DNA of 63,056 nucleotides, counting the filler, from Psammoneis japonica (taxonomy: Eukaryota): assembly GCA_008632985.1 (NCBI GenBank). It is 4 parts of 4 records of this genome, joined end to end, with 100 filler letters (N's around TTAATTAATTAA, not from the genome) between each part and the next. Parts side by side here need not be neighbours in the genome. Positions count along the whole stretch, not along the records: positions 24,091 to 48,050 come from QPGO01000274.1; 3 more parts are not named here. One strand, 5' to 3'. A model generated the notes under the pieces. That model was not told the DNA's origin. It saw only the letters and a list, made by a program, of their open reading frames with translations, and ran no database searches. Below, piece by piece: positions 7,490 through 59,339 of the stretch. Within the stretch, counting starts at the first letter, position 1. Every line of letters starts with the position of its first letter. The translations under genes were made by a program, and so were the position numbers.

Positions 7490-7863
7490 TGTGGGTTTGT
7501 GGCAGTTTACGCCGCAGAGATAGAAACAGCAACAACAGACAATTTGGGAGGTGCGAATTGACCAGCTGCTTGACAACCAATGAGAATTTGTAAAGAACAA
7601 GAAGTGACCCGCATTTGCACCGGACTCAACACAGATGAACATGGTGCAAAGACTTGTCAGGAATGAGAAGTTCTTGATTGCATGAAAGAAGAACAGAAGT
7701 GAGGCTCAATTCTCGATTTGAACCCCAGACCTCCGACCTCATTCGTTTCTCGATCTGTGATTGGGTGAGTCGTTGATGGTGGTTGATGGCGGTTTCTGAG
7801 CGGCCATTGTCACACGCAGGACTTGATGGCACACTGACACATGAATGTGTGTGCATTCTCACA
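7490..7863 (-). repeat. 3' LTR of the copia element
   Basis: Aligns with 13544-13905. Has TG...CA termini and lies next to the PPT. Confidence 0.9.
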
Positions 7864-7889
7864 CTCCCTCACACTGAAATGTCCAAGTT

Positions 7890-10800
7890 GCCACCATCCC
7901 TGAACCAAGAGACGATGGCGAATGAACATCGCTGGGTCCGGCATTTTAGTCAGGAAGTTGGCCTGTTGGAGTTTGGTCCCAACAGCTTCAATCAAGAGAC
8001 GTCCGTTGGCGACTTCAGAGTGGAAGTGGTGACAGATGTTGTTGACATGGCATGTTCTTGGATGCATCTTGGGCACTTTTGCAATTTCAAGTGCAGCCGA
8101 GTTGTCTTTGAACAGCTTGCAGTGGACTGTTGGTGTCTTTGCCACAGGACAAAACTTCTCATTCACCTCCTCAAGGAGGTGCATGGATGCTTTAACATGC
8201 CTGGTGGCAGCCGACAAGGCCAAGCATTCACTCTCACTGCTGCTGAGAGCAAATTGAGTCTGTGGCTTGGAAGACCAGCAGAGAGGAGCCCCTCCACACT
8301 TAACAACATGGCCGCTGCGAGACTTTGCTGTGTTGGGGTCCTCTGCCACGATTGCCTTGTCCCAATTGCCACAGAAGTCAGCATCCACACAGCACTCAAA
8401 GCTCTTGGTGCCATCTGGAGGGACCTGAATGCAGTGGCCCTTGTCACGAGTCAGCAAAAAGCACCGTCCAAGGTGCTTGAGGGCTGCTCCATGGGATTTC
8501 TTTGGATTGGCGGTGAAGCGAGCCAGTTGGTGAGTTGTGTGCATGACATCAGGGCGAGCAGACTTCTCAAGGAAGTGACTTTGCCCACAACCGATCGGCA
8601 GTCGAAATCACAATCAAAAGGTTTGCCGTCAAAGTCAGGCCCAATGAGCCCAGCAGAGAGGGCTGGAAGCTCCCTGGTGGTCACTGCTTTCTTCGGCATT
8701 CCATCCTCGTTGACAAGTCCAAAATCAATGAGAATGCTGTTGATGAGGTGAGGCTGAGCCAAGTGATGTCGGTTCTCGTCCCTCTGAATCTTGACTCCAA
8801 GGCATTCGTCAATGGTTCCTTCGTCCTCCACATCGAATGTGGTTTGCATCAACTTGATGACCTTGTCAATGTTCGCTGCAGACTCCCAATCAAAGACAAG
8901 ACAATCATCTGTGTGGACCAGGAGGACTGTGGTTCCTCTGCAGAAGACACATTCATTGCACTCTGATGGAACAAATCCGAGTTGCAACAAACGGGCGCAG
9001 AGATGTTTGTGCCAAGTTCGTCCACTGTCATGTCCGCTGTAGATGTTCTTCTTAATGCGGAGACAAAATTTTTTGTGTGATCAATGCCAGGAAACATCAC
9101 TCCCCCAGGTAGTTCCATGAAGGTGGGCCGTGGAATGTCCGCTTGTGGACACGCAAGGACAAAATCAACCTGTCTTGAATGCCAGCCATGCATGACACAT
9201 GGACACAGGAACAGATGGATTGTTGTCCAGGACAAAGCAGGTGCACTAGTCTGGTCACAGTGCTTTCCGGGAATTTGCTTGTGCCCGCCAAGATTGAGCC
9301 GACTCTTCCATTTATAGACCTCTCGTGTGTGAATTCGGTGCTCGCGCTTCATTGACCATGCTGCTGGTGGGACAGTCTCGTCGTCAGGCACATTGGATTT
9401 CTCACACAGTTCCCAATGATCATGAGTGGTGTGGTCTCGAATTTCCTTCACCATGGCCTCCTTGAACTGCTCTGCATCTGGCTGCTTCATGGCTTCATGC
9501 ACGCACATGGCATCTGGATCAGCAGAGGCCTTCAAGGAGCAAGCGATGGGATCATCAAGTTCTGCTTGAAAATCTTGTTCTGAGCACATGTCCTGGTCCA
9601 GCACTTCGAAATCGGCTTGATGTGATGCAACATTGGCCTGCTGCTGCAGTTCCGACTTGATCACACGCTGTGTTGGCTGAACAGTGCATCCAGACTGTGT
9701 CATTTGCACTGCTGGTGGAGGCTCTGGTTCAGGGACTTCGGACTCCGGCAGTGATTCTGGGGTCTCAGAGACTCCCTCATTTGTTGCATTTGTCGTGTCT
9801 TCCTCGTCTTCCACCAACTCATCTGGTGCGGCTGCCTCCAAAGGCATTTCAGTGGGTTCGGCACCATGGTGGGCACTTGTCGTGATTCATGTGGTCTTGA
9901 CGCATGCCGTTGCTGCGGTCTTCTCATCAAGTCATGGTTGAAGTTTTGAGTCTTGGATGAAGTGGCAGATCTGCTGCCAGCGGGACTCAGTCGTGCGTTG
10001 GGATTTGAGTGTTTCAAACAAATTGTCAAACCTCATGTGACATTGTGGTGAGACCATCTTCGTGGCGAGATTTAAAACCAAAGCAACCAAATGAGAGTGT
10101 CTTGGCGATGGTCCAAGATGTGGACCAACTCGAGAGCAAGGGTCCCACTTGGGTGTGGTGTTGTTGGCCTGCAATTTGTTGTTGAGAACACAGGCTGGAC
10201 AGGCGAACGGATGAAAGTGCCAAATTTTGGGTTTCACTGGTGCTTTTGAGAAAAGTTTGATCGGCAACGCTTGTTGACCAGCTCTTGGCACACAGTTGTG
10301 CACAGCATTTGCGCATCAAACAGTGCAGGGCCACAGAGCCACCTCTGCTGCTGCTGGCCATCGATGCTTGGCGTGCATGAGTTGTGTGCGAGCCAAATCT
10401 TGGAGGTCACGGATTCTTTTCTCGCAAATGCTGTTTTGAAAATGTGCATTGACTCCACAAAAGGACATTGTTTGGTTTGCATCCTTCACTGCCTTGAGGC
10501 ATGCATTGTCTGCAAAACAACCGTTGTCGGCGTGGCAGTGACGAATGTGGACTCCGAGTGATCAAGAGTGCACTTCAAACGCATGCTTTGCCGCTGCCGT
10601 CTCAACTCCAGTCAAAGTTGTTTGTGGATGAACGAAAGAGAGGTCACTGCAGTGATCAACGAACAAAGCAGCGCATTTGCATCGTTTTGTTGTTGCCCAG
10701 CCTTTCAATTGGCCTGCTGGTCCTGGTGTTGTCGCGTCGACTTGATCCACCGACACGCACTGACCAGGCTCAGCAGCCTTGAACATTTTGTGTTGTTTGT

Positions 10801-12115
10801 TGTCCCCTTTGACCTTACATGGTGCTTTTGTCGCTTTTCCGAATCGACAGGCCGCACATTGAGGGACATGACACGTTGATGGACGATGAGGTAGGTCTCC
10901 ACTGCGAGCCACAGCTTGCATGCGCGGAAATGGGAGATGACCGAGCCGACAGTGCCAAAGTAATAATTCGTGGGACGGATTCGCAGGCGTGATGATTTCT
11001 TCGTTTTCAATGAATGGTTCGTCATCTGAACCGTCCTCTGATGGGTTGAATTCAACTGCATTGGGGTTGGACGAAGGCATTGATTGATCCGCATGGACAG
11101 CTTCCTCGTTTGGGCTAGTTGTGTCATCGGGTGCTTCGTCAACCGGAATGTCAGTCGGAACAGTGGGTTGCTTGGCATGGTCCGAGACCCCGTTGGGCAG
11201 AGGAACATGATTGTGAGCAACAGCAGCATCGGGAGCATCGTCGTCGGGCGGAATGAGGTGCGCTCGGAATGCACAAAAATTTTCGGCACGACGACAGTCG
11301 CAGGTTTCGCGTGACGCCTGAAGGGACGTAAAGGAAGGGGTGGAGCGAAAGACACCGACATTGCTTTTGTTGAGGGGGACCGACCGCATGTGTTTTCGAT
11401 CCATCCACTCTGGCATGATGCGGTTGCTTGTGGTCACAGCACGAGTCCCTTCTTGGGTGTGCTCTTGTGGCTTGAGAGCTTGAGCCAGGTGTTGCGGAGA
11501 CAGGAGTCGCATCAAGAGGTCGGGAACACAACACATGCCGGGCACATTCATGGTGTGAGTCCGTCCGAGGTCGTCTTGGATGGGCCAACAACCAGTGCCT
11601 TTGCATGAGGTCGACACGTTGCCGGATGCACCTTTGACGTTGACGCTGACCTTTGTTGGCGGCTTTATGAAGTCCGACATCAAGTTGGTCAGACAGTGTA
11701 AGGCGTGGTCATCAACACCGATCAAAAATGAGTTGGTGTCACAGCTGTGGTTGTTGTGGGTCGAATGCCGCTCCGTGTCGGTGGTGGAAGAGCATCCGAC
11801 AACAGGTTTGCAGGTGACATGGACCTTGATGACCTTGTGCATGACACACGTGCCACATTTGCGATGGACATGTCGTTGGCGGCAAGCAGAGCCTTGCTTG
11901 CACCAACTCTGAGGTCTTCGGACTCGAGGCTTGGTGTTGAAGTTGAAGTGGAGGGGCTTGGCCAAGTCAGACAAGGAGTGCAACAGATCACATGCATTGC
12001 CAATCACGTTAGCTGCGATGGGAGTTACTTTCATCAAGAGAGTTTCCACAATCTCATCAGTGCAGGCCAAGATTGCAAACAGTGCAACAAGCAGTGTGGC
12101 ACAGATCATCTCCAA
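7890..12115 (-). pseudogene. pol: copia pol pseudogene (protease, GAG-pre-integrase, integrase, RT, RNase H)
   Basis: Motifs: IGVDDHALHCLTN (PR-like), LLWHCRLGHLPF...CAAC (pre-INT), CVSVDQ and FVDHCSD (INT), WKSRLNLGGHKQ, QVDFVLACPQA and LLVHTDD (RT; YxDD read as HTDD), CCVDADFCG, SRSGHVVKCGGAPLCWSSK and ESECLALS (RNase H). Confidence 0.93.
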
Positions 12116-12130
12116 ACCTGACTGCCACCT

Positions 12131-23990: not shown

Positions 23991-24090
23991 NNNNNNNNNN
24001 NNNNNNNNNNNNNNNNNNNNNNNNNNNNNNNNNNTTAATTAATTAANNNNNNNNNNNNNNNNNNNNNNNNNNNNNNNNNNNNNNNNNNNN
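23991..24090. other. Artificial contig linker
   Basis: N-run + TTAATTAATTAA (stops in all six frames) + N-run, 100 nt total. Confidence 0.97.
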
Positions 24091-29589: not shown

Positions 29590-32500
29590 GCTGGCCAAAT
29601 CAAGTTGCCCCCAGCCACAATTGTTTTTGCAATGACTTTGTGCTTGAAGGTTGCTGTGTCCAAAGTTGCCCCACAGCCACAATTTGGTTTTGCATTTGAT
29701 GCAACATGTCAGCAACAACATTGCTGTGCAAAAAGTGTCAATGCAACGACTTTGTGCTTGAAGGTTGCTGTGACCAAAGTTGCCCCCACAGCCACAATTT
29801 GTTTTTGCATTTGATGCAACATGTCAGCAACAACATTGCTGTGCAAAAAGCATCAATGCAATGACTTTGTGCTTGAAGGTTGCTGAGACCAAAGTTGCCC
29901 CCAGCCACAATTGTTTTTTACATTTGGTGTCAAACATTGGTCTTGTGGACATTTCAGAGCAGGGTGCAATGACTGTGTGCTTGAAAGTTGCTGAGACCAA
30001 AGTTGACCGTCCAAGCCACAATTGTTTGTGCAGGACTTGGTGCCAAACATTGGTCTTGTGGGCATTTCAGAGCAGGTTGCAATGACTCTGTGCTTGAAAG
30101 TTGTTGAGCCTAAAGTTGCCCCCAGCCACAATTGTTTTTTACATTTAGCGCAACATGTCTTCCGGCATGTCAGCAACAACACTGCAGTGCAAAAAGTGTC
30201 AATGCAATGACTTTGTGCTTGAAAGTTGCTGAGACCAAGGTTGCCCCTGGACACAATTGTTTTTTACATTTGGTGCAACATGTCAGCAACAACACAGCAG
30301 TGCAAAAAGTGTCAATGCAATGACTTTGTGCTTGAAAGTTGCTGAGACAAAAGTTGCCCCCAGCCACAATTGTTTTTTACATTTGGTGTCAAACATTGGT
30401 CTTGTGGACATTTCAGAGCAGGGTGCAATGACTGTGTGCTTGAAAGTTGCTGAGACCAAAGTTGACCGTCCAAGCCACAATTGTTTGTGCAGGACTTGGT
30501 GCCAAACATTGGTCTTGTGGGCATTTCAGAGAAGGCTGCAATGACTCTGTGCTTGAAAGTTGTTGAGCCTGAAGTTGCCCCCAGCCACAATTGTTTTTTA
30601 CATTTGGTGCAACATGTCTGTCATCAACAACATTGCAGTGCAAAAAGTGTCAATGCAATGACTTTGTGCTTGAAAGTTGCTGAGACCAAGGTTGCCCCTG
30701 GGCAAAATTGTTTTTTACATCATTTGATGACTGAGTGTGGTGCATCACACAGAGTCAGTGCACAAGGCAGCTGTTGAGACCAAAGTTGCCCCTGGCCACA
30801 ATTGTTTTTACATTCAGTGCAACATGTCTTCCTGCATGTCAGCAACAACATTGCAGTGCAAAAAGTGTCAATGCAATGACTTTGTGCTTGAAAGTTGCTG
30901 AGACCAAGGTTGCCCCTGGATACAATTGTTTTTACATTGTTTGGTGCAACATGTTGGCAGTGCAAAAAGCGTCAATGCAATGACTTTGTGCTTGAAAGTT
31001 GCTGAGACCAAGCACCGTGCACCTGGCAGGAAAAGTCTCTTCTTCTGCCAGCTCAGCTGCACTGCACACAGTCAATGACATCACACAGAGAGTCAGCTCA
31101 CAAGGCAGCTGAAATGGATCTGCCTGCAGCAGAGACAGCCACACAGACCAGCACAGATGCTGCCATTTCCAATCAACAACATGGAGCAGGGAGGTGCAAT
31201 GTGACCCGGCAAATGAAAGATGCCAAATTCACAGCTGTTGAAAAATGCAAAGTTGCCATTTCTCGTCAATTTTTTTTGCTGGAAAAGTGGCAGGACTTGG
31301 TGTCAAACATTGGTCTTGTGGACATTTCAGAGGAGGGTGCAATGACTCTGTGCTTGAAAGTTGTTGAGACCAAAGTTGACCGTCCAAGCCACAATTGTTT
31401 GTGCAGGACTTGGAGCCAAACATTGGTCTTGTGGGCATTTCAGAGCAGGTTGCAATGACTCTGTGCTTGAAAGTTGTTGAGACCAAAGTTGCCCCCAGCC
31501 ACAATTGTTTTTGCATTTGGTGCAACATGTCAGCAACAACATTGCAGTGCAAAAAGTGTCAATGCAATGACTTTGTGCTTGAAAGTTGCTGAGACAAAAG
31601 TTGCCCCCAGCCACAATTGTTTTTTACATTTGATGACTGAGTGTGGTGCACCGCGCACCTGGCAGGAAAAGTCTCTTCTTCTGCCAGTTCAGCTGCATTG
31701 CACACAGTCAATGACATCACACAGAGAGTCAGCACACAAGGCAGCTGAAATGGATCTGCAGAAAGCAGAGACAGCCACACAGACCAGCACAGATGCTGCC
31801 ATTTCCAATCAACAACATGGAGCAGGGAGGTGCAATGTGACCCGGCAAATGAAAGATGCCAAATTCACTGCTGTTGAAAAATGCAAAGTTGCCATTTCTC
31901 GTCAATGTTTTTTTGCTGGAAAAGTGGCAGGACTTGGTGTCTGACATTGGTCTTGTGGACATTTCAGAGCAGGGTGCGATGACTCTGTGCTTGAAAGTTG
32001 TCGAGACCAAAGTTGACAGCCCAAGCCACAGTTGTTTGTGCAGGGCTTGGTGCCAAACATTGGTCTTGTGGGCATTTCAGAGCAGGTTGCAATGACTCTG
32101 TGCTTGAAAGTTGTTGAGCCTGAAGTTGCCCCCAGCCACAATTGTTTTTTACATTTGGCGCAACATGTCTTCCGGCATGTCAGCAACAACATTGCAGTGC
32201 AAAAAGTGTCAATGCAATGACTTTGTGCTTGAAAGTTGCTGAGACCAAGGTTGCCCCTGGACACAATTGTTTTTTACATTGTTTGATGACTGAGTGTGGT
32301 GCATCACACAGAGTCAGTGCACAAGGCAGCTGTTGAGACCAAAGTTGCCCCTGGCCACAATTGTTTTTACATTCAGTGCAGCATGTCTTCCTGCATGTCA
32401 GCAACAACATTGCAGTGCAAAAAGTGTCAGTGCAATGACTTTGTGCTTGAAAGTTGCTGAGACCAAGGTTGCCCCTGGACACAATTGTTTTTACATTGTT

Positions 32501-33220
32501 TGGTGCAACATGTTGGCAGTGCAAAAAGTGTCAATGCAATGACTTTGTGCTTGAAAGTTGCTGAGACCAAGCACCGTGCACCTGGCAGGAAAAGTCTCTT
32601 CTTCTGCCAGCTCAGCTGCATTGCACACAGTCAATGACATCACACAGAGAGTCAGCTCACAAGGCAGCTGAAATGGATCTGCCTGCAGCAGAGACAGCCA
32701 CACAGACCAGCACAGATGCTGCCATTTCCAATCAACAACATGGAGCAGGGAGGTGCAATGTGACCCGGCAAATGAAAGATGCCAAATTCGCAGCTGTTGA
32801 AAAATGCAAAGTTGCCATTTCTCATCAATTTTTTTTGCCAGAAAAGTGGCAGGACTTGGTGTCTGACATTGGTCTTGTGGACATTTCAGAGCAGGGTGCA
32901 ATGACTCTGTGCTTGAAAGTTGTTGAGACCAAAGTTGCCCCCAGCCACAATTGTTTTTACATTTGGTGCAACATGTCTTCCTGCATGTCAGCAACAACAT
33001 TGCAGTGCAAAAAGTGTCAGTGCAATGAGTTTGTGCTTGAAAGTTGCTCAGACCAAAGTTGCCCCTGGACACAATTGTTTTTCACATTTGATGACTGAGT
33101 GTGGTGCATCACACAGAGTCAGTGCACAAGGCAGCTGTTGAGACCAAAGTTGCCCCTGGCCACAGTTGTTTTTGCATTTGGTGCAACATGTCTTCCTGCA
33201 TGTCAGCAACAACATCGCAG
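29590..33220. repeat. Complex satellite with higher-order structure
   Basis: Dozens of copies of the core 'tgcaatgactttgtgcttgaaagttgctgagaccaaagttgcccccagccacaattgtttt' with alternative linkers. A ~280-bp insert occurs three times (~31010, ~31650, ~32570). Confidence 0.95.
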
Positions 33221-40870: not shown

Positions 40871-43800
40871 GGTCATTTGCATGAGACAAAAAACAGCGAC
40901 CTGAGGAAAAAAAATGGTGCTGCTGCATCCATCGCGCCGCCACCATGAATGGGTCCATGCGTCACGACACCAAACAACAGGTGCTGTCCCTCCGCCGGTG
41001 GATTCCCCCCTTCCTCCTTCGATGGCACATGTGCTGGTGGAGGCTGTTCTTCTGGTGGCATGTCAATCGAAGTGCAGCATGAATGGTCGGTTGGTGCCAC
41101 GTCGATGTCATAAAACAACAGGTCAATGGGCGGTGTGTGCAATGTGTGCACAGTCTCACCTGCGTGTGGAAAACATGCTGAAATGCTCTGTGGGAAATTT
41201 TCCACTTTTTTTCACACTTTTGACTTTTGCGTGATGTCATCGCAAGACGTTTGCATGTTCCAAAATTTTGAATTGAAAATTTCTAATTGTTCCTTTCATG
41301 GAATGTGTTGAGCGGAGTGTGGGAAACGGAAATCGCAATCGGAGCACAGCTAGAAAAAAAATCTTCCAACACTTTCAACAAGCAAAACAAGGAGTCATCA
41401 GCTGAGCGTTCCAGCAAAGCTGAGTCCCATTTCTTCAACAATTTCTAGCCCTTCTTCCACCGTCAGGCTACAATGTCGCACACCGTGATGGAGCGACCAC
41501 GCCTGCTCTCGGTCTTCACTCCAACCAACGCCAATTCTGATTCATTGATCCTGTTCACATGCGCACATGTCAAGGATGCCATTCGGCCATGCACAAGACC
41601 CAGGTCCATCACGGACACCACATTTGCACTCTCCAATGAAGACGCCGTCCAACACATCCCTGGACGCTCCTTGCCCGTGTTTTTGATCGCATCTCCATTC
41701 TCCTTCGCACTCATTCCCTTCAAAACATGTGATTTTTCCAACGTGTTGCTTCCCCTTCACATGTTCACCCTCACAGACATCGCCATTTCCAAAACGAATG
41801 ATTCCGTCTCCATGGAACTTTCCTTTGTGGAATTGACCCTTGCAGGAGCACATGTTGTTGTTTTGAGAAGCATGCACATGCTCTCCCTCACCGTGCATTT
41901 CATCTTGATGCCAGCCGCCCTTGCACTTGGATCCATGGGCATCCGTGCAAATGCCTTTTCCATGAAACGCATTGTTTTCCCACGCTCCTGCATGTCTGTC
42001 GACAGACACACACACACAACACGCACGCCAGATGCACAAGCAGAAAGTTGTCATCACAAGGCGGGGAAAACGAAAAGCGGTCCTTGCTTTTCACCATTGG
42101 CACAATCGTGTGTGCCAGCACCATCAAAATTTCCATTCTTGAAGTGCCCTTTGTGCTCGTCCCTGTGACATCAAAACAAAAAAAAGCTGCGCAAGAATGC
42201 TCACACTTCTGGCAGCTGGCTGCACTGTGCCCGATGAGCATCATCCACCAGCGCGAGCACACACATGTTGTGCGAACGAATTGCTCAGGCCTTGCCCATC
42301 AGAGTGCAATGTTCTCCCGCATCTGTGCATGTTGTCATTCTTCCACTCTCCTTTGCAGATGTCCCTGGAAAAGATGAAAGACAACTGTGAGTCTGAACGA
42401 ATCAAAAGACAACGACACGCAGAAACGCGTGCTCACCCATCGTCGCAACTCATGATTCCGCAACCTTCGCGATCTCCCACGGAATTGATGCCACCGCTGA
42501 ATTTTCCGTCTGAGAATGTCTTTTGTGTTTGACGAAGATGACGACAGATTTCAGTGGGTGATTGAGCTGGTTCATCGGCGGCGCCACTCATCATGGTCGC
42601 TGTGTTTTCATCTGTGAAAGGACTGCTGGTTGTGACGGCGCCATCCTCATCTTCCGACGACGATGCAGATGAGTCGACAGAAATGATTTGTGTGCCGCAT
42701 TTGTCCTGTCCCAAGCCCTGGCCTCAGCTTTTGGAATTCTGGTGCAAAAACAACCCACTTTTTGGGACTTTTTTTTCAAACACTGCAACGTTTTTTTGGT
42801 TTTTGTTTTTGTTGCTTTTTTTGTTTTATTTTTCACTTGTTTGTTTTTTCATGTGAGCTTTTTGTGTGAGCTTTGCAACAAACCCATGGCGACATGTTTG
42901 AACCTTGCAAGTTACCTCCTTTGACCTTGCAAGTGACCTCTGAGCCAGGGGTTGAGCATTGGCCACAACTTCTTTTCATTCATGAGTGCCCAGCCATGGC
43001 ACAAAAAAAAATGTTTTGTTTTTGTGCCGCGACTGACTCCAACAGTCCCGAGTGCTGTGAAACCCACACGGGCGGGGAGCAGACTTCCCAAGCAAGTCAC
43101 GAGTGTCCAGTCGTGGCACAAAAAAAAGTTCATTTTGTGCCACGACTGACTCCAATCCCTTTTCATTCCTGTGATGGAAACAAGCACACGCTGAGTGAGC
43201 GACAGACAGACCTCCAAGCAAAGAAGGCTGTCGCTCGCCCCGCCGCTGTTGCGGCCCACCCTTGTCCTCTTCCCTCTTGGGAGTGCTGCACTCAGCACAA
43301 GCAGAAGACATTGGCTGTCTCTCACCTTGCCCCCTCTTTGATGCTTGGCATTGTGGTGTCATCTTTGCGGAGCGCCTCTTTTTTCTTCCGGTGCCTTCAC
43401 CCCCCCTTTCTGTTTTCCCCCTTTCATGCGGCGGGCAGTCCAACAGCTCACAATGCAAGATTCAAGCCACACATCTTTGTCAATGGAGGGGTCCCACAGG
43501 TGCAAATGACTCTTCTCAAAAGCTGGCTTTTCATCCTTTGGCCATGGCTGTTGTCCTTGTTTGTCTGGCAAATGAAACAAAAACACCACTGGGGGCGGAA
43601 AATGACTCCGATGCTTCGCCTTTGTCGACAGGGACGCATTTGCTTGCTGGAGCCCATGACCCTGCCGGCGGCTCTTTTGGGGGTGGAAGCTCTTCAGGAA
43701 ACAAGGAGGGCTGGGGTGATGAGGCGCCCATGGCAAACAGAAAAGACAGACGCTGCTGACAGCGCCGCTGCTGCTGCTGATTGTGTGCCGACAGCAGAAG

Positions 43801-44212
43801 ACAAAGCAGAAGGCAGAGAGACACCACGCGCCAGAAGCTCACACTGCGCGCATGCAGACCCTGCCTGCACAGGCTGTTCAAAAAAGTCACCTCTGTTGTG
43901 CTGTCATGGCTTGTCCCAACCAGGTCAGAAAGGAGCACACTCATGGAAGCCAAACACCAAGAAGCCTTCAAGCCTTCAAGCAGACAGCAGACAGCGCTGC
44001 GGACCCTGCTGGCATGAAATGCAGGGCTGGGCGGCGAGGAGCCAGAGAGAGTGGAGAGCAGGGAGGGTCTCACAAGTTCTGCGCCAATTTGTTTTCACTC
44101 AGGAGCTTTTGACCATCGCAGGTGCAGCCTCCAAATTGTGGCCACAACACCAAAAACAGTTTGCAGAGCTGCGCTGAAGAACGGGACGACGTCCCCAGGG
44201 TTGGGGTTGGGG
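40871..44212. repeat. 3.3-kb duplicated unit, copy 1, ending in telomere-like repeats at an N gap
   Basis: Near-identical to 44276-47618. Confidence 0.95.
41440..42714 (-). pseudogene. MORN-repeat protein pseudogene, copy 1 (probably intron-containing)
   Basis: Repeats 'KCKGGW...MHGEG', 'SCKGQF...FHGDG', 'DVCEGEH' and 'NECEGEW...KHGQG' match MORN YxGxW..G..HGxG with Y read as C or H. Confidence 0.85.
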
Positions 44213-44275
44213 NNNNNNNNNNNNNNNNNNNNNNNNNNNNNNNNNNNNNNNNNNNNNNNNNNNNNNNNNNNNNNN

Positions 44276-47200
44276 GGTCATTTGCATGAGACAAAAAACA
44301 GCGACCTGAGGAAAAAAAATGGTGCTGCTGCATCCATCGCGCCGCCACCATGAATGGGTCCATGCGTCACGACACCAAACAACAGGTGCTGTCCCTCCGC
44401 CGGTGGATTCCCCCCTTCCTCCTTCGATGGCACATGTGCTGGTGGAGGCTGTTCTTCTGGTGGCATGTCAATCGAAGTGCAGCATGAATGGTCGGTTGGT
44501 GCCACGTCGATGTCATAAAACAACAGGTCAATGGGCGGTGTGTGCAATGTGTGCACAGTCTCACCTGCGTGTGGAAAACATGCTGAAATGCTCTGTGGGA
44601 AATTTTCCACTTTTTTTCACACTTTTGACTTTTGCGTGACGTCATCGCAAGACGTTTGCATGTTCCAAAATTTTGAATTGAAAATTTCTAATTGTTCCTT
44701 TCATGGAATGTGTTGAGCGGAGTGTGGGAAACGGAAATCGCAATCGGAGCACAGCTAGAAAAAAAATCTTCCAACACTTTCAACAAGCAAAACAAGGAGT
44801 CATCAGCTGAGCGTTCCAGCAAAGCTGAGTCCCATTTCTTCAACAATTTCTAGCCCTTCTTCCACCGTCAGGCTACAATGTCGCACACCGTGATGGAGCG
44901 ACCACGCCTGCTCTCGGTCTTCACTCCAACCAACGCCAATTCTGATTCATTGATCCTGTTCACATGCGCACATGTCAAGGATGCCATTCGGCCATGCACA
45001 AGACCCAGGTCCATCACGGACACCACATTTGCACTCTCCAATGAAGACGCCGTCCAACACATCCCTGGACGCTCCTTGCCCGTGTTTTTGATCGCATCTC
45101 CATTCTCCTTCGCACTCATTCCCTTCAAAACATGTGATTTTTCCAACGTGTTGCTTCCCCTTCACATGTTCACCCTCACAGACATCGCCATTTCCAAAAC
45201 GAATGACTCCGTCTCCATGGAACTTTCCTTTGTGGAGTTGACCCTTGCAGGAGTGCATGTTGTTGTTTTGAGAAGCATGCACATGCTCTCCCTCACCGTG
45301 CATTTCATCTTGATGCCAGCCGCCCTTGCACTTGGATCCATGGGCATCCGTGCAAATGCCTTTTCCATGAAACGCATTGTTTTCCCACGCTCCTGCATGT
45401 CTGTCGACAGACACACACACACAACACGCACGCCAGATGCACAAGCAGAAAGTTGTCATCACAAGGCGGGGAAAACGAAAAGCGGTCCTTGCTTTTCACC
45501 ATTGGCACAATCGTGTGTGCCAGCACCATCAAAATTTCCATTCTTGAAGCGCCCTTTGTGCTCGTCCCTGTGACATCAAAACAAAAAAAAGCTGCGCAAG
45601 AATGCTCACACTTCTGGCAGCTGGCTGCACTGTGCCCGATGAGCATCATCCACCAGCGCGAGCACACACATGTTGTGCGAACGAATTGCTCAGGCCTTGC
45701 CCATCAGAGTGCAATGTTCTCCCGCATCTGTGCATGTTGTCATTCTTCCACTCTCCTTTGCAGATGTCCCTGGAAAAGATGAAAGACAACTGTGAGTCTG
45801 AACGAATCAAAAGACAACGACACGCAGAAACGCGTGCTCACCCATCGTCGCAACTCATGATTCCGCAACCTTCGCGATCTCCCACGGAATTGATGCCACC
45901 GCTGAATTTTCCGTCTGAGAATGTCTTTTGTGTTTGACGAAGATGACGACAGATTTCAGTGGGTGATTGAGCTGGTTCATCGGCGGCGCCACTCATCATG
46001 GTCGCTGTGTTTTCATCTGTGAAAGGACTGCTGGTTGTGACGGCGCCATCCTCATCTTCCGACGACGATGCAGATGAGTCGACAGAAATGATTTGTGTGC
46101 CGCATTTGTCCTGTCCCAAGCCCTGGCCTCAGCTGTTGGAATTCTGGTGCAAAAACAACCCACTTTTTGGGACTTTTTTTTCAAACACTGCAACGTTTTT
46201 TTGGTTTTTGTTTTTGTTGCTTTTTTTGTTTTATTTTTCACTTGTTTGTTTTTTCATGTGAGCTTTTTGTGTGAGCTTTGCAACAAACCCATGGCGACAT
46301 GTTTGAACCTTGCAAGTTACCTCCTTTGACCTTGCAAGTGACCTCTGAGCCAGGGGTTGAGCATTGGCCACAACTTCTTTTCATTCATGAGTGCCCAGCC
46401 ATGGCACAAAAAAAAAATGTTTTGTTTTTGTGCCGCGACTGACTCCAACAGTCCCGAGTGCTGTGAAACCCACACGGGCGGGGAGCAGACTTCCCAAGCA
46501 AGTCACGAGTGTCCAGTCGTGGCACAAAAAAAAGTTCATTTTGTGCCACGACTGACTCCAATCCCTTTTCATTCCTGTGATGGAAACAAGCACACGCTGA
46601 GTGAGCGACAGACAGACCTCCAAGCAAAGAAGGCTGTCGCTCGCCCCGCCGCTGTTGCGGCCCACCCTTGTCCTCTTCCCTCTTGGGAGTGCTGCACTCA
46701 GCACAAGCAGAAGACATTGGCTGTCTCTCACCTTGCCCCCTCTTTGATGCTTGGCATTGTGGTGTCATCTTTGCGGAGCGCCTCTTTTTTCTTCCGGTGC
46801 CTTCACCCCCCCTTTCTGTTTTCCCCCTTTCATGCGGCGGGCAGTCCAACAGCTCACAATGCAAGATTCAAGCCACACATCTTTGTCAATGGAAGGGTCC
46901 CACAGGTGCAAATGACTCTTCTCAAAAGCTGGCTTTTCATCCTTTGGCCGTGGCTGTTGTCCTTGTTTGTCTGGCAAATGAAACAAAAACACCGCTGGGG
47001 GCGGAAAATGACTCCGATGCTTCGCCTTTGTCGACAGGGACGCATTTGCTTGCTGGAGCCCATGACCCTGCCGGCGGCTCTTTTGGGGGTGGAAGCTCTT
47101 CAGGAAACAAGGAGGGCTGGGGTGATGAGGCGCCCATGGCAAACAGAAAAGACAGACGCTGCTGACAGCGCCGCTGCTGCTGCTGATTGTGTGCCGACAG

Positions 47201-47618
47201 CAGAAGACAAAGCAGAAGGCAGAGAGACACCACGCGCCAGAAGCTCACACTGCGCGCATGCAGACCCTGCCTGCACAGGCTGTTCAAAAAAGTCACCTCT
47301 GTTGTGCTGTCATGGCTTGTCCCAACCAGGTCAGAAAGGAGCACACTCATGGAAGCCAAACACCAAGAAGCCTTCAAGCCTTCAAGCAGACAGCAGACAG
47401 CGCTGCGGACCCTGCTGGCATGAAATGCAGGGCTGGGCGGCGAGGAGCCAGAGAGAGTGGAGAGCAGGGAGGGTCTCACAAGTTCTGCGCCAATTTGTTT
47501 TCACTCAGGAGCTTTTGACCATCGCAGGTGCAGCCTCCAAATTGTGGCCACAACACCAAAAACAGTTTGCAGAGCTGCGCTGAAGAACGGGACGACGTCC
47601 CCAGGGTTGGGGTTGGGG
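44276..47618. repeat. 3.3-kb duplicated unit, copy 2
   Basis: Begins exactly at the edge of N gap 44213-44275. About ten differences from copy 1 by eye. Confidence 0.95.
44845..46119 (-). pseudogene. MORN-repeat protein pseudogene, copy 2
   Basis: Same motifs as copy 1. Confidence 0.85.
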
Positions 47619-48050
47619 CCAGGGTTGGGGTCAGGGTTGGGGTTGGGGCTGGGGTTGGGGTTGGGGTTGGGGCTGGGGTTGGGGTCAGGGTTGGGGTTGG
47701 GGTTGGGGCCGGGGTCAGGGTTGGGGTGGGGCTGGGGTCAGGGTTGGGGTTGGGGTTGGGGCCAGGGTCAGGGTTGGGGTCAGGGTCAGGGTCAGGGTTG
47801 GGGTTGGGGGCTGGGGTCAGGGGGGGGGGGTTGGGGCCAGGGTTGGGGTTGGGGTTGGGTCAGGGTTGGGGTTGGGGTCAGGGTTGGGGTCAGGGTTGGG
47901 GCCAGGGTCAGGGGTTGGGGTTGGGGTCAGGGTTGGGGCAGGGGGTTGGGGTTCAGGGTCAGGGTTGGGGTTCAGGGCCAGGGTTGGGGCTGGGTCAGGG
48001 TCAGGGTTGGGTGGGGTCAGGGTTGGGTCAGGGTTGGGTTCGAGGGTTGG
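47601..48050 (+). repeat. Degenerate telomere-type hexamer array (TTGGGG/TCAGGG/CTGGGG/CCAGGG)
   Basis: ~450 bp with 6-nt periodicity at the contig end. No TTAGGG unit and no TA dinucleotide seen. Confidence 0.9.
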
Positions 48051-48150
48051 NNNNNNNNNNNNNNNNNNNNNNNNNNNNNNNNNNNNNNNNNNNNTTAATT
48101 AATTAANNNNNNNNNNNNNNNNNNNNNNNNNNNNNNNNNNNNNNNNNNNN
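48051..48150. other. Artificial contig linker
   Basis: N-run + TTAATTAATTAA + N-run. Confidence 0.97.
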
Positions 48151-48697: not shown

Positions 48698-51600
48698 CTA
48701 GACCATCACAAGCTCAGTCTCGACTCCGGCTGCCTCTAGCTTGCGCTTCACCTTGATTGCATCTTCCTTCTTATAGGCCTCCATGTCTTCGAGTGGGTAA
48801 GGTTGATCCAGAGCTTCGTACTTGTCTCGACCGAGTTCGTGGTAAGGAAAAAGCTCGACGTGCGTAAAGACCGGGTCGAGCTCTTTGGCGAAGTGTATCA
48901 ACTTATCAAGTTCAGAGTCGGTGTCGGTAAGGTTTTTGAGAAGGACCCAACGGAGACTCAATTTGACATGGTCTGCATGGTTGTTGCGAATGTACAACGC
49001 AAAATCCTTGGCCCTCGCCATGTACACCGTCGGATGACGGGCCACATACGCCGCTGTGTCATTATTCATGCCCTTTAAGCACAGCATGACATAGTCTGTA
49101 TGCTGCAACACCTTCTCCCACTGAGGCTCTTGTCCATAGCACGCCGTGTCAAGGCAGGTGGTTACTCCCAAGTCGTGAGCTCGCTCGAAGACAGAGGCAA
49201 CAAAATTGGGCTGGAGCAACGGTTCTCCTCCAGAAATGGTAACTCCGCCCTCTCGTGGGATAAGGAAGGATTTGTACTTAGCCACAATGGACACAAGCTC
49301 TTCATCCGTCATGGCAAACTCTGGATGGCTTTCGGGGTTCACAATATCCTGGGTCTCGGGATTGCAGCAAAATAGACAGCGCTTCGGGCACCCCTGAAGG
49401 AAAATATTTACGCGAATGCCGGGCCCATCGGAGGTAGAGAACGTCTCAAGGGAATATACACATCCCTTCACCACTTTTTGGTCGGGACGCCGCCCGTACT
49501 GGTATGATAGCTCTGACCCTTGCTTACTGTCCGTTGTCTTCTTTTTGTTCAAGATGGATGTGACGCCGGAAGAGTGCATTGTGCGGGCCATGACTTCCGT
49601 TCTCTGTTCGGGACTGAGCTTAGCGAACTTGACACAGTATCCACCAACTCGAATCGTTAGATTCGGATACTTCTCCGGATGTTTATCCGCGTCTTGGAGA
49701 ACCTCTCGACTCAATACATTCACGTTGATATGATGCGCATCCCGCTCAAAGTAACCATCAAGCATTGTAACCAGATTCCGAGGCCTTTTGTCGGGAGAAA
49801 AGCCCAGAGCAGTGGGGAGCAAACAAAATGTGTTGGACACACCGTCCATGCATTTTGCGTATGGAATCTTTGCGACGGATGCCAGCGACGCAAGGGATCC
49901 ATTCTTATCGCGACCGTGCATAGGATTCGCTCCGGGTGCAAAGGGTTCTCCCTTGAGACGGCCGTCAGGCGTTGCGCCGGTCGCCTTGCCGTACACGACG
50001 TTGCTCGTAATCGTCAGGACAGATAGTGTGGCCTTGGCATCGCGATAAAGCTCCTGCTTATCGAGTTCTTCGTGGAAGCGCGAACATATCTTTAAGGCAA
50101 TGTCATCGACTTGGTCATCGTTGTTTCCAAAAGTGGGGATATCGAGGCTTGGATCTTCTCTTTGGAAGCCAACCGTAAGGCCTTCCTCATTGCGAATGGG
50201 GTAGACCTTGTCGTGCTTTATCGTTGAAAGTGAATCTGCGACGACTGATAAACCGGCAATGCCGAATGCCATGAACCGATTCACATTTGTATTGTGGAGT
50301 GCCATTTGGATGTTCTCATAATTGGCACGATCATGCGCAAAGTGAATGCAATTCATTGTCTCGGCGTACAACTTGGCCATCCATGGCATGGCGATATTAA
50401 AGTACATCTTTTCGACCTTTTCGTAGTCCAGCGGGCGATTTTCGTCGCCGGTGCCGACACCAGCGTCCTCGCAGGCCTTCTTGAGCTCGGGACAGAGCAA
50501 TTCGCCGTGGCTCTCATCTCGTCCTCCGTTGAGACACATGAGGAGTAGCTTCACCATGTTGGTACGGGCACCAAAGAACTGCATATCGATGCCGGTTCGC
50601 ATGGCGGATACGCAGCAGGCAATCGAGTAGTCACATCCAAAGATGCTTCGCATCATCTCATCGTTCTCGTACTGAATCGATGACGACGTAATCGACTGCT
50701 TGGCGCAGTAGTTCTTGAAGCCTTCGGGGAGACTTGAAGACCACAACACGGTAAGGTTGGGCTCAGGTGCCGAGTTTAGGTTTGTAAGCGTGTGAAGGAA
50801 GCGGAAGGTGGTCTTTGTCACGAGGCTACTGCCACTTTCTGAACAACCTCCCAACGCGAGTGTGATCCAGGTAGGATCGCCCGAAAACAAGGCATTGTAC
50901 TCTGGACTTCTCAAATGTCGAACTAGGCGCATCTTGATAACAAGATCGTCTATGATCTCTTGTAGCTCCTCTTCCGTCGCCACACCAGCAGCAAGGTCCT
51001 TCTCGGCGAAAATGTCTAGGAAGCCGTCCCACCGACCGACACTCATGGCGGCACCGTCCTGTTCCTTGAGTGCGGCCAAGTGTCCCAGCCACATGGCTTG
51101 AGCAGCTTCCTTGAAGGACGCGGATGGCTTACGGAGGTCAACGCCGTAGGCATCCGCCATGAACAACAGCTCCTTGAGGGCGATAACTTGCTTGGTAATC
51201 TCGGATCGCAGACGCATGTCGGATTCGGTGCTACCAGAAATGGCGACGTAATCCTTTTTCTTCCTTGAAATGAGCTCATCCACACCAAAGAGTGCGAGTC
51301 GACGGTAGTCGCCAATGATTCGACCTCGTCCATAGGCGTCCGGCAATCCCGTAAGCAAATGAACGTGTCGTGCTTGGCGCATTTCCTTGGTGTACGTGCT
51401 AAAGACCAGGTCATTGTGCGTTTCAACGGGACCGCCCGCACCGTAGGTTGCGGCCATGGCATCATCGGCTTCGTAGCCATAGCTCTTGAGTGCGGCCTGG
51501 ACTACCCTAAATCCTCCACGTGGTTTGCAAGAGCGCTTGAGGGGTTCATCGGTTTGAAGACCGACAATCACGTCCTCGTCGGCGGAGAGAAGGTAACCGG

Positions 51601-52071
51601 GTCCATGGGACGTAATGGTTGATGCCTTCTTGGTGTCGACATCTAAGACTCCCTTTTTCAGTTCAAGCTCCATCAACTCTTCACATCGCTTCAGACACTT
51701 GAGAGTACGTTCGGTTGGTGGAGCAAGGAAGGACTCATCGCCGTGGTAGGGTTTCGCCTTTGCGAGAACAAAGGTCTTGACGTCGCAGTCTCCCGGAGAA
51801 GGATCGGGTTTGACGAGTTCGGGTAGCTGGTGAGTTGCCGGTGGTTGCTTACTACCCTGTTGTAGTTTGAGAACACTACGGTCCTCCGGGGATACCGCTG
51901 TGGTTGGTAGAGAAGGGGGGGAGGCACTATGTGAGCGACAAAATGATCAAACCCGTTGCTGTTGAGCCTCATAAACAATTACAACTTCGTTCACTCACAT
52001 CGTACTCGGCCCGCTTCAGAATACCCAAGGGGTTGCTGGTTGATAAGCCTTACTCGACTTGTAATGGTCAT
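48698..52071 (-). CDS. pflB-pflA: Pyruvate formate-lyase fused to its radical-SAM activating enzyme. Predicted exons 52071-51999 and 51897-48698
   Basis: PFL motifs: [10 protein letters not shown] (upstream of the listed ORF start), [41 protein letters not shown] and [16 protein letters not shown] motifs: DGPGIR...[28 protein letters not shown] and [10 protein letters not shown] 101-nt GTGAGT...pyrimidine tract...CAG intron keeps exon 1 in frame. Exon 1 is less certain than the rest. Confidence 0.95.
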
Positions 52072-52949
52072 GGTTTGTATTTTCAAATGCGATTCTTTGT
52101 CGTGTTTCTCTTGTTTGTTTTTTTGTGAGAATTGGCGGTCGGTTCGTGGCCAATTCTTGGGTTCGCATTTGCGATGTGTTTGGGTCGGTTTCATCGGCAT
52201 TTTCAATTATGGGACGTCCGTTAGTGTATCTTCTGTGAATCCCGCCGTGACATTTGCCACGACTTGAAAGAGATGTACATACTGGTTGGCACATAGGTTC
52301 TACGTGTATTTTTTAGCGATGTATCTTATCCAGGTGGCGGATATGCCTACGACATCAGAACATAACGACACCCGTGATGTCGCCTTTTCACAAAAAATCG
52401 GAATTCTCAATTACATCGTTCCGTTCTTGCAACGAATGGTAAAGAGTAAAAGGAATCAATCCAGTAAGGCCCTACCGTGTCGGAAGGAGATAAATGAGTC
52501 GTGTATCCCAAACAATGGAACGGGGTTGAAGAGAGTGAATGAAGGTCGCGTATGAACAACTAGTCGCGGAAGAACTAGTCGCGGAAACTGAGGAGAGAGA
52601 ATAGCTTATAATTTTAGTTGTGTGACAATAATCAATAATATGCTAGGCTCCGAACATACCGAAAAGAGTACGAGTACACAATTGCTGCCTTTCACAAATT
52701 CGGAATTCTCATCTTTACAGAAGAAACCAATTCAGCGCGACAAAATCCAAGCACGTGCTTCGACGACTCCACGCGTCTGGTCGTTCGTCTGTGATCGCAA
52801 TTTCGGTGAGAATCAATCCAGTACTGGAGCGAAAGAGTACACGATAAAGCAAAGTGTTGCATCACAAGAATTTCAGATATGCTCCCTTCTGATTTTAAAA
52901 AGAAAGAAATAACATCTAAAATTGTTTATCTTTTACAACTATCTATCTA

Positions 52950-54086
52950 TTAGACAGGACTGTCGTTTGGTGTTGCACTCTGTCGCGTAGACGATATGAT
53001 TTGCTCGTTGTTTTCACCTTGTTCCACATTGCGATCATGACCAATATTTCTCCAGAAGCTTCTGATTCGTTCCCATGATACGCAATTGCCGTTATTCGTG
53101 TTGCCCATGGTATCAAACACGTACCAGTAGACAGCTCCGATGCAAAGCCCACCACCGACCAAATTCCCCAGCGTCGCGGGCAACAGGGCTTGAAACAAAA
53201 GCTTCGACGCGGAAATGTCGGCGCCCAGCATCATTCCGACGGGAATCAAGAATTGATTGGCGATGCAGTGGTCCAATCCCATGGCGACAAAGCCGGCAAT
53301 GGGAAACCACAGCGCCAACACCTTGCCGGCCACCTCTTCGGCACAAGTTGCTTGCCACACTCCGACACACACCATGAGATTGGCACCAATAGCCTTGAGA
53401 AAAATATTCAACCAAGGTTGGTTGGCCTTCTTCAGTGCGACTTGCACGGCATAGTCATCTTCCCCTAAATCTTGCAACGCATCGCTGAGATACCCAATAA
53501 ACAAGGCCCACAAGAGGCATCCCACAAAGTTGAAGCACCACGATACGGTCCAGTTGCGACACAGCTTTCCAAAGCTCACGTTCCCGCCCAAAAGCGAGGC
53601 GACAAAAATAAGAGCGTCGCCGGTGAAGAGTTCGGCGTTGGTAAGCAAGACGGCAATCAACCCCGTTGGGAACAAGGCGGCGCCCAGCAGTCCACCGCCG
53701 ACACTGAGAAAGAGTTGGCCCGCCATGCCAATATACACCCCGGCCATGATGGACTGTACCGCCAAAACGCGGAGCGTCAATCCCGCCTTGTACTGACCCG
53801 CCTTGTAGATTGCTTGGAGAGCATCCTTGGGAGATTTTGTGGCGGTATGATGAATCAGTGCGGATGGCATCAAGACCACCGGCTGTACTTGTTGTTGTTG
53901 CTGCCGTGGTGATGTATCCGTCCTTGATGTTGTTGTTGTGGTAGGTTTGCTCTTGTTGTCGTCGTCATCGTCCGACAGTGACGAGCATGCTTCTTCCTCG
54001 TCGTTATGGGTTTGTTTGCACTTCAACGAGTTGACGTCGTCGTAGTGGTCGTTTTGTACGGAACTGTCGCTTATCAAGTTGCTCAT
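52950..54086 (-). CDS. Formate/nitrite transporter (FNT, FocA/NirC/NAR1 family)
   Basis: 'LFPTGLIAVLLTNAELFTGD', 'FLKAIGANLMVCVGVW', 'FVAMGLDHCIANQF' and 'TLGNLVGG'. Likely start MSNL at 54086. The longer ORF runs into TpA-depleted repeat DNA. Confidence 0.95.
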   Translation of the reverse strand: MSNLISDSSVQNDHYDDVNSLKCKQTHNDEEEACSSLSDDDDDNKSKPTTTTTSRTDTSPRQQQQQVQPVVLMPSALIHHTATKSPKDALQAIYKAGQYKAGLTLRVLAVQSIMAGVYIGMAGQLFLSVGGGLLGAALFPTGLIAVLLTNAELFTGDALIFVASLLGGNVSFGKLCRNWTVSWCFNFVGCLLWALFIGYLSDALQDLGEDDYAVQVALKKANQPWLNIFLKAIGANLMVCVGVWQATCAEEVAGKVLALWFPIAGFVAMGLDHCIANQFLIPVGMMLGADISASKLLFQALLPATLGNLVGGGLCIGAVYWYVFDTMGNTNNGNCVSWERIRSFWRNIGHDRNVEQGENNEQIISSTRQSATPNDSPV

Positions 54087-55633
54087 GGTGAAATTCTGTA
54101 AAGTGTTCGTTTTGTGTGCGGCGATCGGCGAAGCAAGACAAAAAAAAAAAAGAATTGAGAATGGGCGTTGGATCGGCATTTTCGTCGAGAAAAATGCGAA
54201 CTGTGTGCCGTACGTACGTCGTGCGTACAGAATGTTTTTTCGTCGCGATGATGGGACCCACGTTCTCTGTTCTGTGACGCCATCAAGGCACCTGCTTGGT
54301 GCCCTGCCCTCCTGCTGAGACAGCACCCCCCCTGGCTCCATGTTGTGCAATCTGGTTGCCAGCGTTGGAGCATCAGTTGCCTCATGCATCATGAACTGGC
54401 CTCTTCTTGTTGCTCGTTGCAGCCAATTTCATGTGTTGCCATCAATTGAAAACAGCCAGTGGAAAAGAGTTGGGGGCGAAGCAACAGGTCATCTGATGAG
54501 CAGACAATGGCTGTGGAGTGACATGTCCAGTGCTCTCTGAATGCACTGCAGGGTTGCCTCTGCCACCCAGAGCACCCTGCCTGACTCTTTGGCACTTCTC
54601 TCCGTCCTGGTCGATGCTCGACATGACGCTGTGCTGCTGGGCTTGAGGTGCCATGGAGCAGGGGGCGGGGTTGCCTGGAGCACAAATCTTTTCTCCAGGC
54701 TGCCTGTGACATGTTCAAAGCACCATGCACTGCATGTTGTTTTTTCTGCTGCAAAATCTGTTTCTCTGGAGCAAAGCCAGGCACAGCCACGTTGTCAAAT
54801 CATTTCACATCAACAGAGGCAAGTTTTGCGTTGGTGAGTGCATGAAAACCAAAACAATGAAGTGAAGCTCAACCAAGCAATTCTTGTAGCCAGCGTTGCC
54901 CTTGTCATGATGATGGCTCATGATGGTCTCGCTGGCTCTGCCAGCATTTCTGTTGACAACGTCAGCTTTTCAGTGCAGCGCAAAGATCTCGCCATTTGAC
55001 GGCTCTTTGTGAGACAAGTTTGGCCATGCAGTCACAGTCTCTGGTGACATGGTGGCAGTTGGATCCATTTTTGATGAAAACAAGAAGGGATCCATCCACA
55101 TCCATCAGGGACAAAATGGCTCCTGGGGACAAACACAGAAACGTGGTGTTCCCAGAGGCCAGCGATGTCCAAAAGGACTTTCACATTGGCAACGTGGAGG
55201 TTGTCATGTCTCACAAGACACCTTGGTCGTGCTGGGCAAGTCATGACTCAACGTCATTCTGGTCGCATCTCACGACTGCAACCCAGACTCAGATTTTCTC
55301 TTCGAAACAATTGGCTCATCACAAAATCGATTCAAACAGAAGCAACGACATTCGTCATAATTTTTAGACAACGACTTTGAACAAGCATCTGTTCACCTCT
55401 GTGCTGTTCACATTGCCACCAACCTCCGAGGTCTTGTCCATCCTACCCAGCTGCAGGACTGTATCTCGACTGGTCACAGAACCCAAGTTTGCGCGTTGAC
55501 GAGAGCTCCTGACTGAGTCATCGTCACGGACGCTTTCGGTTTTGATTTTGAAGCAAACCCGGGAAACAGCTGAGTCTCTCTTGCTTCTCTCGTCTTCATT
55601 CTAACAAGAACCTCCCATGCTGCACTCTCTGTC

Positions 55634-59239: not shown

Positions 59240-59339
59240 NNNNNNNNNNNNNNNNNNNNNNNNNNNNNNNNNNNNNNNNNNNNTTAATTAATTAANNNNN
59301 NNNNNNNNNNNNNNNNNNNNNNNNNNNNNNNNNNNNNNN
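59240..59339. other. Artificial contig linker
   Basis: N-run + TTAATTAATTAA + N-run. Confidence 0.97.

Follow-up and report, generated by a model that had tools for sequence, protein, structure and literature searches.

Telomere-type repeats lacking TTAGGG beside TpA-depleted repetitive DNA in the diatom Psammoneis japonica

The window analyzed here, a stretch of 63,056 nucleotides from the diatom Psammoneis japonica (assembly GCA_008632985.1), contains an array of telomere-type hexamers that lies behind a subtelomeric element, present in two copies (A and B), at the end of the contig QPGO01000274.1 (positions 24,091 to 48,050 of the window). The features of the locus are collected in Table 1. 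Identical artificial linkers carrying stops in all six frames are found at 23991-24090, 48051-48150 and 59240-59339; the window is thus a concatenation of at least four contigs, and adjacency across a linker is biologically meaningless. The first-pass annotation of this DNA had asked whether the array is interstitial or subterminal. It abuts the second linker with its G-rich strand pointing outward, which at the level of the assembly is a contig-end position with the polarity of a real telomere. Telomere-type repeats were absent from the five other contig ends listed in the window, the 18 bases that follow copy A being the sole further instance, and no telomerase RNA or other Rfam match was found in the window.

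Table 1. Features of the window discussed in the text (o/e, observed/expected ratio of a dinucleotide)
Feature	Position	Strand	Details
Decayed Ty1/copia polyprotein remains	7777..12130	-	RVT_2, gag_pre-integrase; conserved-Tyr test
113-bp repeat family	29628..33093	+	20 copies; homologous columns TG, CA or residual TA
Subtelomeric element copy A	40871..44194	+	99.67% identical to copy B
Start of putatively converted array after copy A	44195..44212	+	CCAGGG TTGGGG TTGGGG
Scaffold gap between copies A and B	44213..44275		63 N; cuts off the copy-A array
Subtelomeric element copy B	44276..47600	+	3325 bp; 7 TA (o/e 0.035); CG o/e 0.66
Telomere-type hexamer array	47601..48050	+	about 75 units; G-rich strand 5'->3' to contig end
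Artificial contig linker	48051..48150		44 N + TTAATTAATTAA + 44 N; ends the array-bearing contig
Pyruvate formate-lyase (PFL) fused to activating enzyme	48698..51946	-	TA-normal control gene; next contig

The sequence 47596-48050 was parsed into pieces made of a run of non-G bases followed by a run of G, giving 76 pieces of which two belong to the flank. The units counted were TTGGGG (31), TCAGGG (17), CCAGGG (5), CTGGGG (4), TTGGG (4), TGGGG (2), TTCAGGG (2) and singletons (11). Tandem Repeats Finder reported 47604-48050 with a period of 6, 74.2 copies, 71% matches, 6% indels and a score of 318. By exact match TTAGGG does not occur once in the 450 bp up to the last base of the contig; in the window as a whole there is one TTAGGG on the + strand and there are four on the - strand. 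When up to 3 mismatches were allowed, (TTAGGG)3 matched at 21 places, all inside 47625-47970, against 0.01 expected from 100 shuffles. Each of the 21 matches has exactly 3 mismatches, one per unit, and TTGGGG and TCAGGG each lie a single transition away from the canonical hexamer. Parse, repeat finder and shuffles therefore agree with the earlier description of about 75 hexamers, mainly TTGGGG and TCAGGG, without TTAGGG, and confirm that the array is real, at the position given in Table 1, and far beyond chance.

By the bases at positions 2-3 (TG, CA, CG or TA), the 58 clean hexamers are of the TTG type in 35 cases, TCA in 22, TCG in one and TTA in none (Fisher p=4e-15). Position 1 is T in 48 and C in 10, position 2 is T in 35 and C in 23, and position 3 is G in 36 and A in 22, while positions 4, 5 and 6 are G in all 58 (0/174 G positions altered). 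In this the unit has the TnAmGo form of a eukaryotic telomere minisatellite. All departures from TTAGGG in these units are AT->GC transitions. It never happens that a clean hexamer carries neither of the two changes that destroy TpA, and both occur together in just 1/58. The two main units had been proposed to be the single-step TpA->TpG and TpA->CpA products of the canonical unit; these counts bear this out and add that the two outcomes are mutually exclusive. The G-strand outcome is somewhat commoner than the C-strand outcome (44 vs 27, p=0.057). TTG and TCA types follow one another in an order compatible with chance (41 runs where 34.5 are expected, z=+1.66), with same-type runs no longer than 8 TTGGGG-type and 3 TCAGGG-type units; given this random interspersion, strand-coordinated tracts are absent. 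Odd-length units become more frequent from the inner side to the contig end (0/19, 3/19, 4/19 and 9/17 by array quarter). This rise fits thinning read support, and the odd-length units may well be basecalling errors.

The loss of TA extends far beyond the array. The TA-poor DNA of the window amounts to 44.4 kb (1-13400, 16400-47600 and 54400-59239), consists of decayed Ty1/copia remains and satellites, and has a TA o/e of 0.07 (193 TA), with CG at 0.51, CA at 1.67 and TG at 1.64. AT, AA and TT are undepleted (o/e 0.88, 1.26 and 1.27). The TA-normal DNA, 11.3 kb, is genic and has a TA o/e of 0.55 and a CG o/e of 1.01; its genes encode PFL fused to its activase, a formate/nitrite transporter, a DUF4116 protein and FG-GAP repeat proteins. 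TA is also kept in the unique intergenic DNA between PFL and the transporter (o/e 0.67). The edges between the two kinds of DNA are sharp within 200 bp: counts of TA per 200 bp jump from 0 (13200) to 6 (13400), for instance, and drop from 3 (54200) to 0 (54400). As in repeat-induced point mutation (RIP), copia and satellite DNA is hit and neighboring unique genes are spared. TA is also lost in two other contigs of the window where this was measured.

This loss is near-complete whatever the loss of CG. In all 42 one-kb bins of TA-poor DNA the TA o/e lies between 0 and 0.22, with CG o/e ranging from 0.10 to 0.86 (rho=-0.02), and in the 3325-bp subtelomere about 96% of TA is gone and only about a third of CG. 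The process is thus separate from CpG decay, and much faster than both CpG decay and background change. The earlier suggestion of saturation is in line with the TA o/e of 0.07 over 44.4 kb and of 0.035 in the 3.3-kb subtelomere. That TA was lost as a by-product of CpG methylation decay is ruled out, since TA and CG losses are uncorrelated. GC-biased gene conversion near a chromosome end is ruled out as well: of TA, AT, AA and TT, TA alone is depleted, and the two other contigs are affected alike.

The direction of change was read from conserved codons in the copia remains. The first 40 of 83 intact polyprotein relatives were aligned to the window with tblastn (136 alignments), and codon sites were kept where at least 5 relatives aligned with at least 70% agreement. 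At 24 sites of conserved Tyr, the window has Tyr 2 times, TGY 14 times, CAY 4 times and other codons 4 times. Other conserved residues are mostly retained: Phe 26/29, Trp 16/19, Asp 32/37, His 26/27, Cys 12/14, Lys 24/29 and Asn 13/16, the non-Tyr classes ranging from 67 to 96% with the exception of Ile (45%). In the PFL control gene, Tyr is retained at 28/29 conserved sites. These counts show that TA changed to TG or CA in the repeats, a direction that had been proposed from the telomere unit and that is here independent of any assumption about telomeres. The presence of both TGY and CAY on one sense strand favors a process that acts at the DNA level on either strand over editing of retroelement RNA. 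Such editing before reverse transcription is ruled out by these 14 TGY and 4 CAY on the copia sense strand, and is also contradicted by the effect on non-retroelement tandem repeats and on the telomere tract.

One part of the earlier interpretation is not supported. A weaker component acting at WA (W, A or T) had been suggested from the units that start with C. Position 1 is C in 10/58 clean hexamers, which on the C-strand amounts to A->G following A or G, but this extra T->C is independent of unit type (4/35 for TTG vs 5/22 for TCA, p=0.29). AA and TT are not depleted in TA-poor DNA, and Phe, Lys and Asn codons of the copia remains are largely kept, as given above. Overall, the first-pass annotation is partly supported, with its direction, saturation and specificity each backed by separate tests.

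Sister copies of the repeats offer another view of the same process. Copies A and B differ by 10 mismatches and 1 indel, which include four CpG decays and one double difference of TG versus CA (45254-5). With the array start included, the copies extend over 40871-44212 and 44276-47617, and their first three array units are alike (18 bases can be compared). Copy B starts at exactly the point where it becomes similar to copy A, and the 63-N gap has no array sequence on its right side, which favors a redundant contig over a tandem structure. The two distinct copies may be alleles, paralogous chromosome ends or tandem units. In the 113-bp family, column 51 reads CA in 10 copies, TG in 6 and AA in 4, column 34 reads CA in 15, TG in 2 and TA in 1, and column 70 reads TA in 9, TG in 2 and CA in 1. 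At 46817-8, a contig of the public DNA data set X1 has CA where the window has TG. The same site being TG in some copies and CA in others means that tandem units were converted singly, with either outcome, and the pattern of the array is alike.

The flank itself could be compared with sequencing data. X1 contains a 0.70 share of the sampled flank words and is possibly the assembly's own source; two other runs, X2 and X3, contained next to nothing of the flank, and no RNA data set was listed. On 44300-47800 we placed 126 X1 contigs, 58 of which are at least 99% alike, including pieces of 206 and 216 nt with 0 differences. The word depth over the flank is about 30-200, and the subtelomeric element is multi-copy. 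Between X1 and 44300-47800 there are 153 variable places (145 transitions and 8 transversions), with C/G in the window and T/A in the read at 97 places and the reverse at 48. Among the best-supported 40 of the 153, the other copy shows CpG->TpG/CpA at 18, and 6 involve TA. Judging from its longest contig of 315 kb and the exact matches, X1 appears to consist of accurate reads, the platform not being on record. Since X1 contigs reproduce it, the TA-free flank is real sequence, and the loss of TA is mostly common to the copies.

A few peculiarities of the TA-poor DNA deserve mention. A 357-bp unit is repeated 4.0 times at 97% identity at 36027-37454 and overlaps long spurious open frames. The absence of TA removes TAA and TAG stops, so that long open reading frames in TA-poor DNA are no evidence of genes. 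Among the 193 surviving TA, 35 are in the context TTAC. In the 113-bp family, a site that resists conversion has the context TTTTTTACATT, its TA being kept by 9 of the 18 copies with that column.

We lean towards reading the array as a TTAGGG-derived telomere tract that was converted by a fast, repeat-limited TpA->TpG/CpA process. It would be the telomere tract of a chromosome end, or an inner part of it that telomerase did not renew, and the process would turn the A:T pair at TpA into G:C by transition on either strand, as in the adjoining repeats, here run to completion. A hit on the G-strand would yield TTGGGG and a hit on the C-strand TCAGGG. Because the first hit destroys the TpA, each unit would be hit once, which makes the two outcomes mutually exclusive, leaves no TTAGGG and keeps the G-runs intact. 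We infer an enzymatic process that is directed at repeats or heterochromatin. One chemistry might be deamination of adenine at TpA, the context in which TadA/ADAT-type enzymes prefer their adenine; another might be the modification or oxidation of the T of TpA followed by pairing with G. Both chemistries fit the data equally. Working telomeres may escape conversion if the outer part, eroded and re-synthesised by telomerase, stays canonical and the persistent inner part is converted: only persistent DNA accumulates hits, so a renewed outer telomere would stay canonical. That TTAGGG is the ancestor is assumed by analogy with other diatoms; the telomeres of Thalassiosira pseudonana and Phaeodactylum tricornutum are given as uniform TTAGGG in the excerpted reports (PMC3622300, PMC8329260).

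Several observations count against this reading. There is no canonical unit in 450 bp, even just before the contig end, where a long-read contig would be expected to reach TTAGGG; the contig may not reach the true end, the cap itself may be converted, or the array may be a native product. The evidence comes from a single chromosome end. The unit types alternate slightly more than by chance (z=+1.66), leaning toward a loose 12-mer. The 12 units that start with C among all 74 show no inner-outer gradient (7 in the inner half vs 5 in the outer half). Finally, support from X1 covers the flank and not the array, 47604-47800 having been passed over as repeat, and X1 is perhaps the source of the assembly itself.

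Telomerase could also have laid down the irregular mix of TTGGGG and TCAGGG directly, using two template variants or realigning variably on a long template. The array would then be a working telomere, and its lack of TA would be unrelated to the flank or would reflect an adapted template. We consider this origin rather unlikely, even if it has a diatom precedent that also speaks against conversion: the sections on telomeres in the report on Nitzschia inconspicua describe a degenerate G-rich 12-mer (TTAGGGTTGGGG) that contains TTGGGG and occupies 355-414 nt, similar to the 450 bp of the array, at contig ends only (PMC8329260). An array that runs to the contig end without a canonical unit, the slight excess of alternation and the perfect G-runs (58/58), which templated synthesis predicts, point the same way. 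However, independent misincorporation at two adjacent positions would also yield TTAGGG and TCGGGG, seen in 0 and 1 of the 58 hexamers, and there is no regular 12-mer, as up to 8 units of the TTGGGG type or 3 of the TCAGGG type occur in a row. The absence of TA continues unbroken into 3.3 kb of non-telomeric flank (7 TA), where the change is mutational, and copies that differ at 10 sites have their first three units in common, as fits inherited DNA (over 18 bases only).

Two further explanations concern the place and the reality of the array. Conversion may have affected a relic telomere-like tract inside subtelomeric repeats, with the contig stop being a break made by the assembler. In favor of such an interstitial tract, which we regard as improbable, X1 contigs too break at the start of the array, canonical units are missing altogether, and the environmental contigs described below, at least 79, carry short arrays of variant units that are mostly internal. 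Behind the array in which copy A ends come a gap and then the element a second time, as would be the case for tandem elements with internal tracts; yet the right side of the 63-N gap shows no array, and the start of copy B better fits a redundant allelic or paralogous contig. The polarity is that expected of a real end, and the roughly 75 units exceed any of the 79 listed environmental arrays (5-43 units). A wholesale basecalling artefact is unlikely, and we give very little credence to the scenario in which a true (TTAGGG)n was misread in long-read basecalling or consensus, maybe through DNA modification, and left uncorrected at a thin contig end. According to the excerpts of the relevant study, nanopore basecalling converts (CCCTAA)n to (CCCTGG)n, equivalent to CCAGGG on the G-strand, the current profile of (TTAGGG)n is close to that of (TTGGGG)n, and TCAGGG and TTGGGG are miscalled as 7-mers and CCCTGA as a 5-mer (PMC9414165). 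The increase of odd-length units toward the contig end, with 9/17 in the last quarter, and the position of the array outside the cover of X1 contigs would agree with misreading. On the other hand, the miscalls documented in these excerpts form blocks of TTAAAA, CTTCTT and CCCTGG, and TCAGGG is not among the TTAGGG miscalls they list (PMC9414165). The array has no TTAAAA or CTTCTT-type units, its CCAGGG (the equivalent of CCCTGG) amounts to just 5 scattered units, and its unit types are finely interspersed. The TA-free flank is reproduced by X1 contigs at a depth of about 30-200, and the Tyr->Cys/His changes in coding remains tell of the same loss.

Returning to conversion of a TTAGGG tract, the array is closest to the proximal variant repeats of human telomeres and to the telomere of N. 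inconspicua, and is a member of neither. The human variants share with it the TTGGGG ('j-type') and TCAGGG ('c-type') units, which are single-transition derivatives of TTAGGG and lie beside the subtelomere; the TGAGGG ('g-type') unit is absent from the array. In the excerpted literature, the human variants are thought not to be renewed by telomerase (PMC9414165, PMC6393293, PMC3518223). They are interspersed with TTAGGG and followed by a long canonical array, whereas the array, on a contig that may end early, has no canonical unit among its roughly 75. Unlike for the human variants, a flank with the same TA-specific loss argues for a directed mutational cause rather than slow drift. The N. inconspicua telomere, as far as the excerpts describe it, likewise belongs to a diatom, occupies a few hundred bases at contig ends and contains TTGGGG together with truncated or odd-length units (PMC8329260). 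In the same excerpts, TTAGGG is part of every 12-mer (630 exact matches) and TCAGGG is not reported (PMC8329260); in contrast, the array has no TTAGGG and no regular 12-mer, and about a third of its units are TCAGGG. Paramecium, with TTGGG[G/T], and yeast, with TG1-3, also mix unit types irregularly in one telomere, as cited within an excerpt of that report (PMC8329260). Their variation amounts to misincorporation at one position or to slippage, neither of which predicts two adjacent positions in strict exclusion.

The process also invites comparison with known forms of repeat decay. It resembles fungal RIP in being a transition-only hypermutation with a dinucleotide preference that is confined to repeats, has sharp edges and kills transposon frames. 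RIP changes C to T at CpA and so makes TpA. The process described here destroys TpA through A:T->G:C (TA 0.07, CA 1.67, TG 1.64); it is not RIP, having a similar outline and the opposite compositional outcome. RIP, a process of ascomycete fungi, is named in an excerpted source that describes diatom DNMT4 as a relative of RID whose function is not known (PMC9998398). Decay of 5-methylcytosine at CpG likewise acts on a palindromic dinucleotide in repeats, yields TpG and CpA, and is at work in the TA-poor DNA as well (CG o/e 0.51), but it has another target dinucleotide and changes the other base pair. In a full-text search with most subscription journals outside its coverage, no published description of diatom repeats decaying specifically at TpA was found, and TTGGGG in diatom literature turned up in the N. 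inconspicua report and in telomere surveys only.

A scan of metagenomes with a 24-base piece of the array served as a side lead only, as the search pattern forced variant units to be present. At least 79 marine loci have short arrays of 5-43 units that mix TTAGGG, TTGGGG and TCAGGG, mostly inside the contig. The 79 listed arrays contain 143 TTAGGG units in total; GC content is 61-73% in the 22 of these loci that were checked, and no blastn match to the window was found among the 79. Retention of TTAGGG rises weakly with the TA o/e of the flank (rho=0.33, p=0.01, in the 59/79 listed loci that were usable). Eight parsed environmental units read ACCTGG, one per locus where seen in the top-5 lists. 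These arrays point to a dispersed element of some unrelated eukaryote, one that has a telomere-like tract inside it.

The control gene lies in a small metabolic locus of its own. The PFL-activase fusion is one open frame of 1082 codons that includes a radical-SAM activating enzyme, and it stands beside the formate/nitrite transporter (48698-54428, - strand). Its best named relatives are from Seminavis, Fistulifera, Epithemia, Amphora and Cyclostephanos, at 71-75% identity. PFL and the transporter form a compact formate-metabolism pair, and many of the diatom relatives found have the fused form as well.

A telomere tract is non-coding and its starting sequence is known with some confidence, which makes it a natural reporter of a mutation process. 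Here the reporter displays completeness (none of about 75 units escaped conversion), a single hit per site that can fall on either strand, and specificity (G unchanged at positions 4-6 of the 58 clean hexamers). Together with the Tyr->Cys/His changes in dead transposons, the array documents a decay that is specific to TpA and limited to repeats, here in a diatom. Were an enzyme responsible, the process would represent a new type of genome defense, and nature would offer in it a context-specific A:T->G:C DNA editor. The array also raises the testable question of whether the working chromosome ends of this species are canonical or converted. We put forward only tentatively, as a possibility that may well prove wrong, that this diatom has an active repeat-directed TpA hypermutation system, a counterpart of RIP with the opposite chemistry, which is fast enough to outpace CpG decay and also rewrites telomeric DNA, so that chromosome ends are capped by TA-free tracts of TTGGGG and TCAGGG. 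Were this true, candidates for the system would be a deaminase that acts on DNA adenine and shares the T-A preference of TadA/ADAT enzymes, or a thymine-modifying enzyme, and the end-binding proteins or the end-maintenance route of the species would need to have adapted to TA-free caps.

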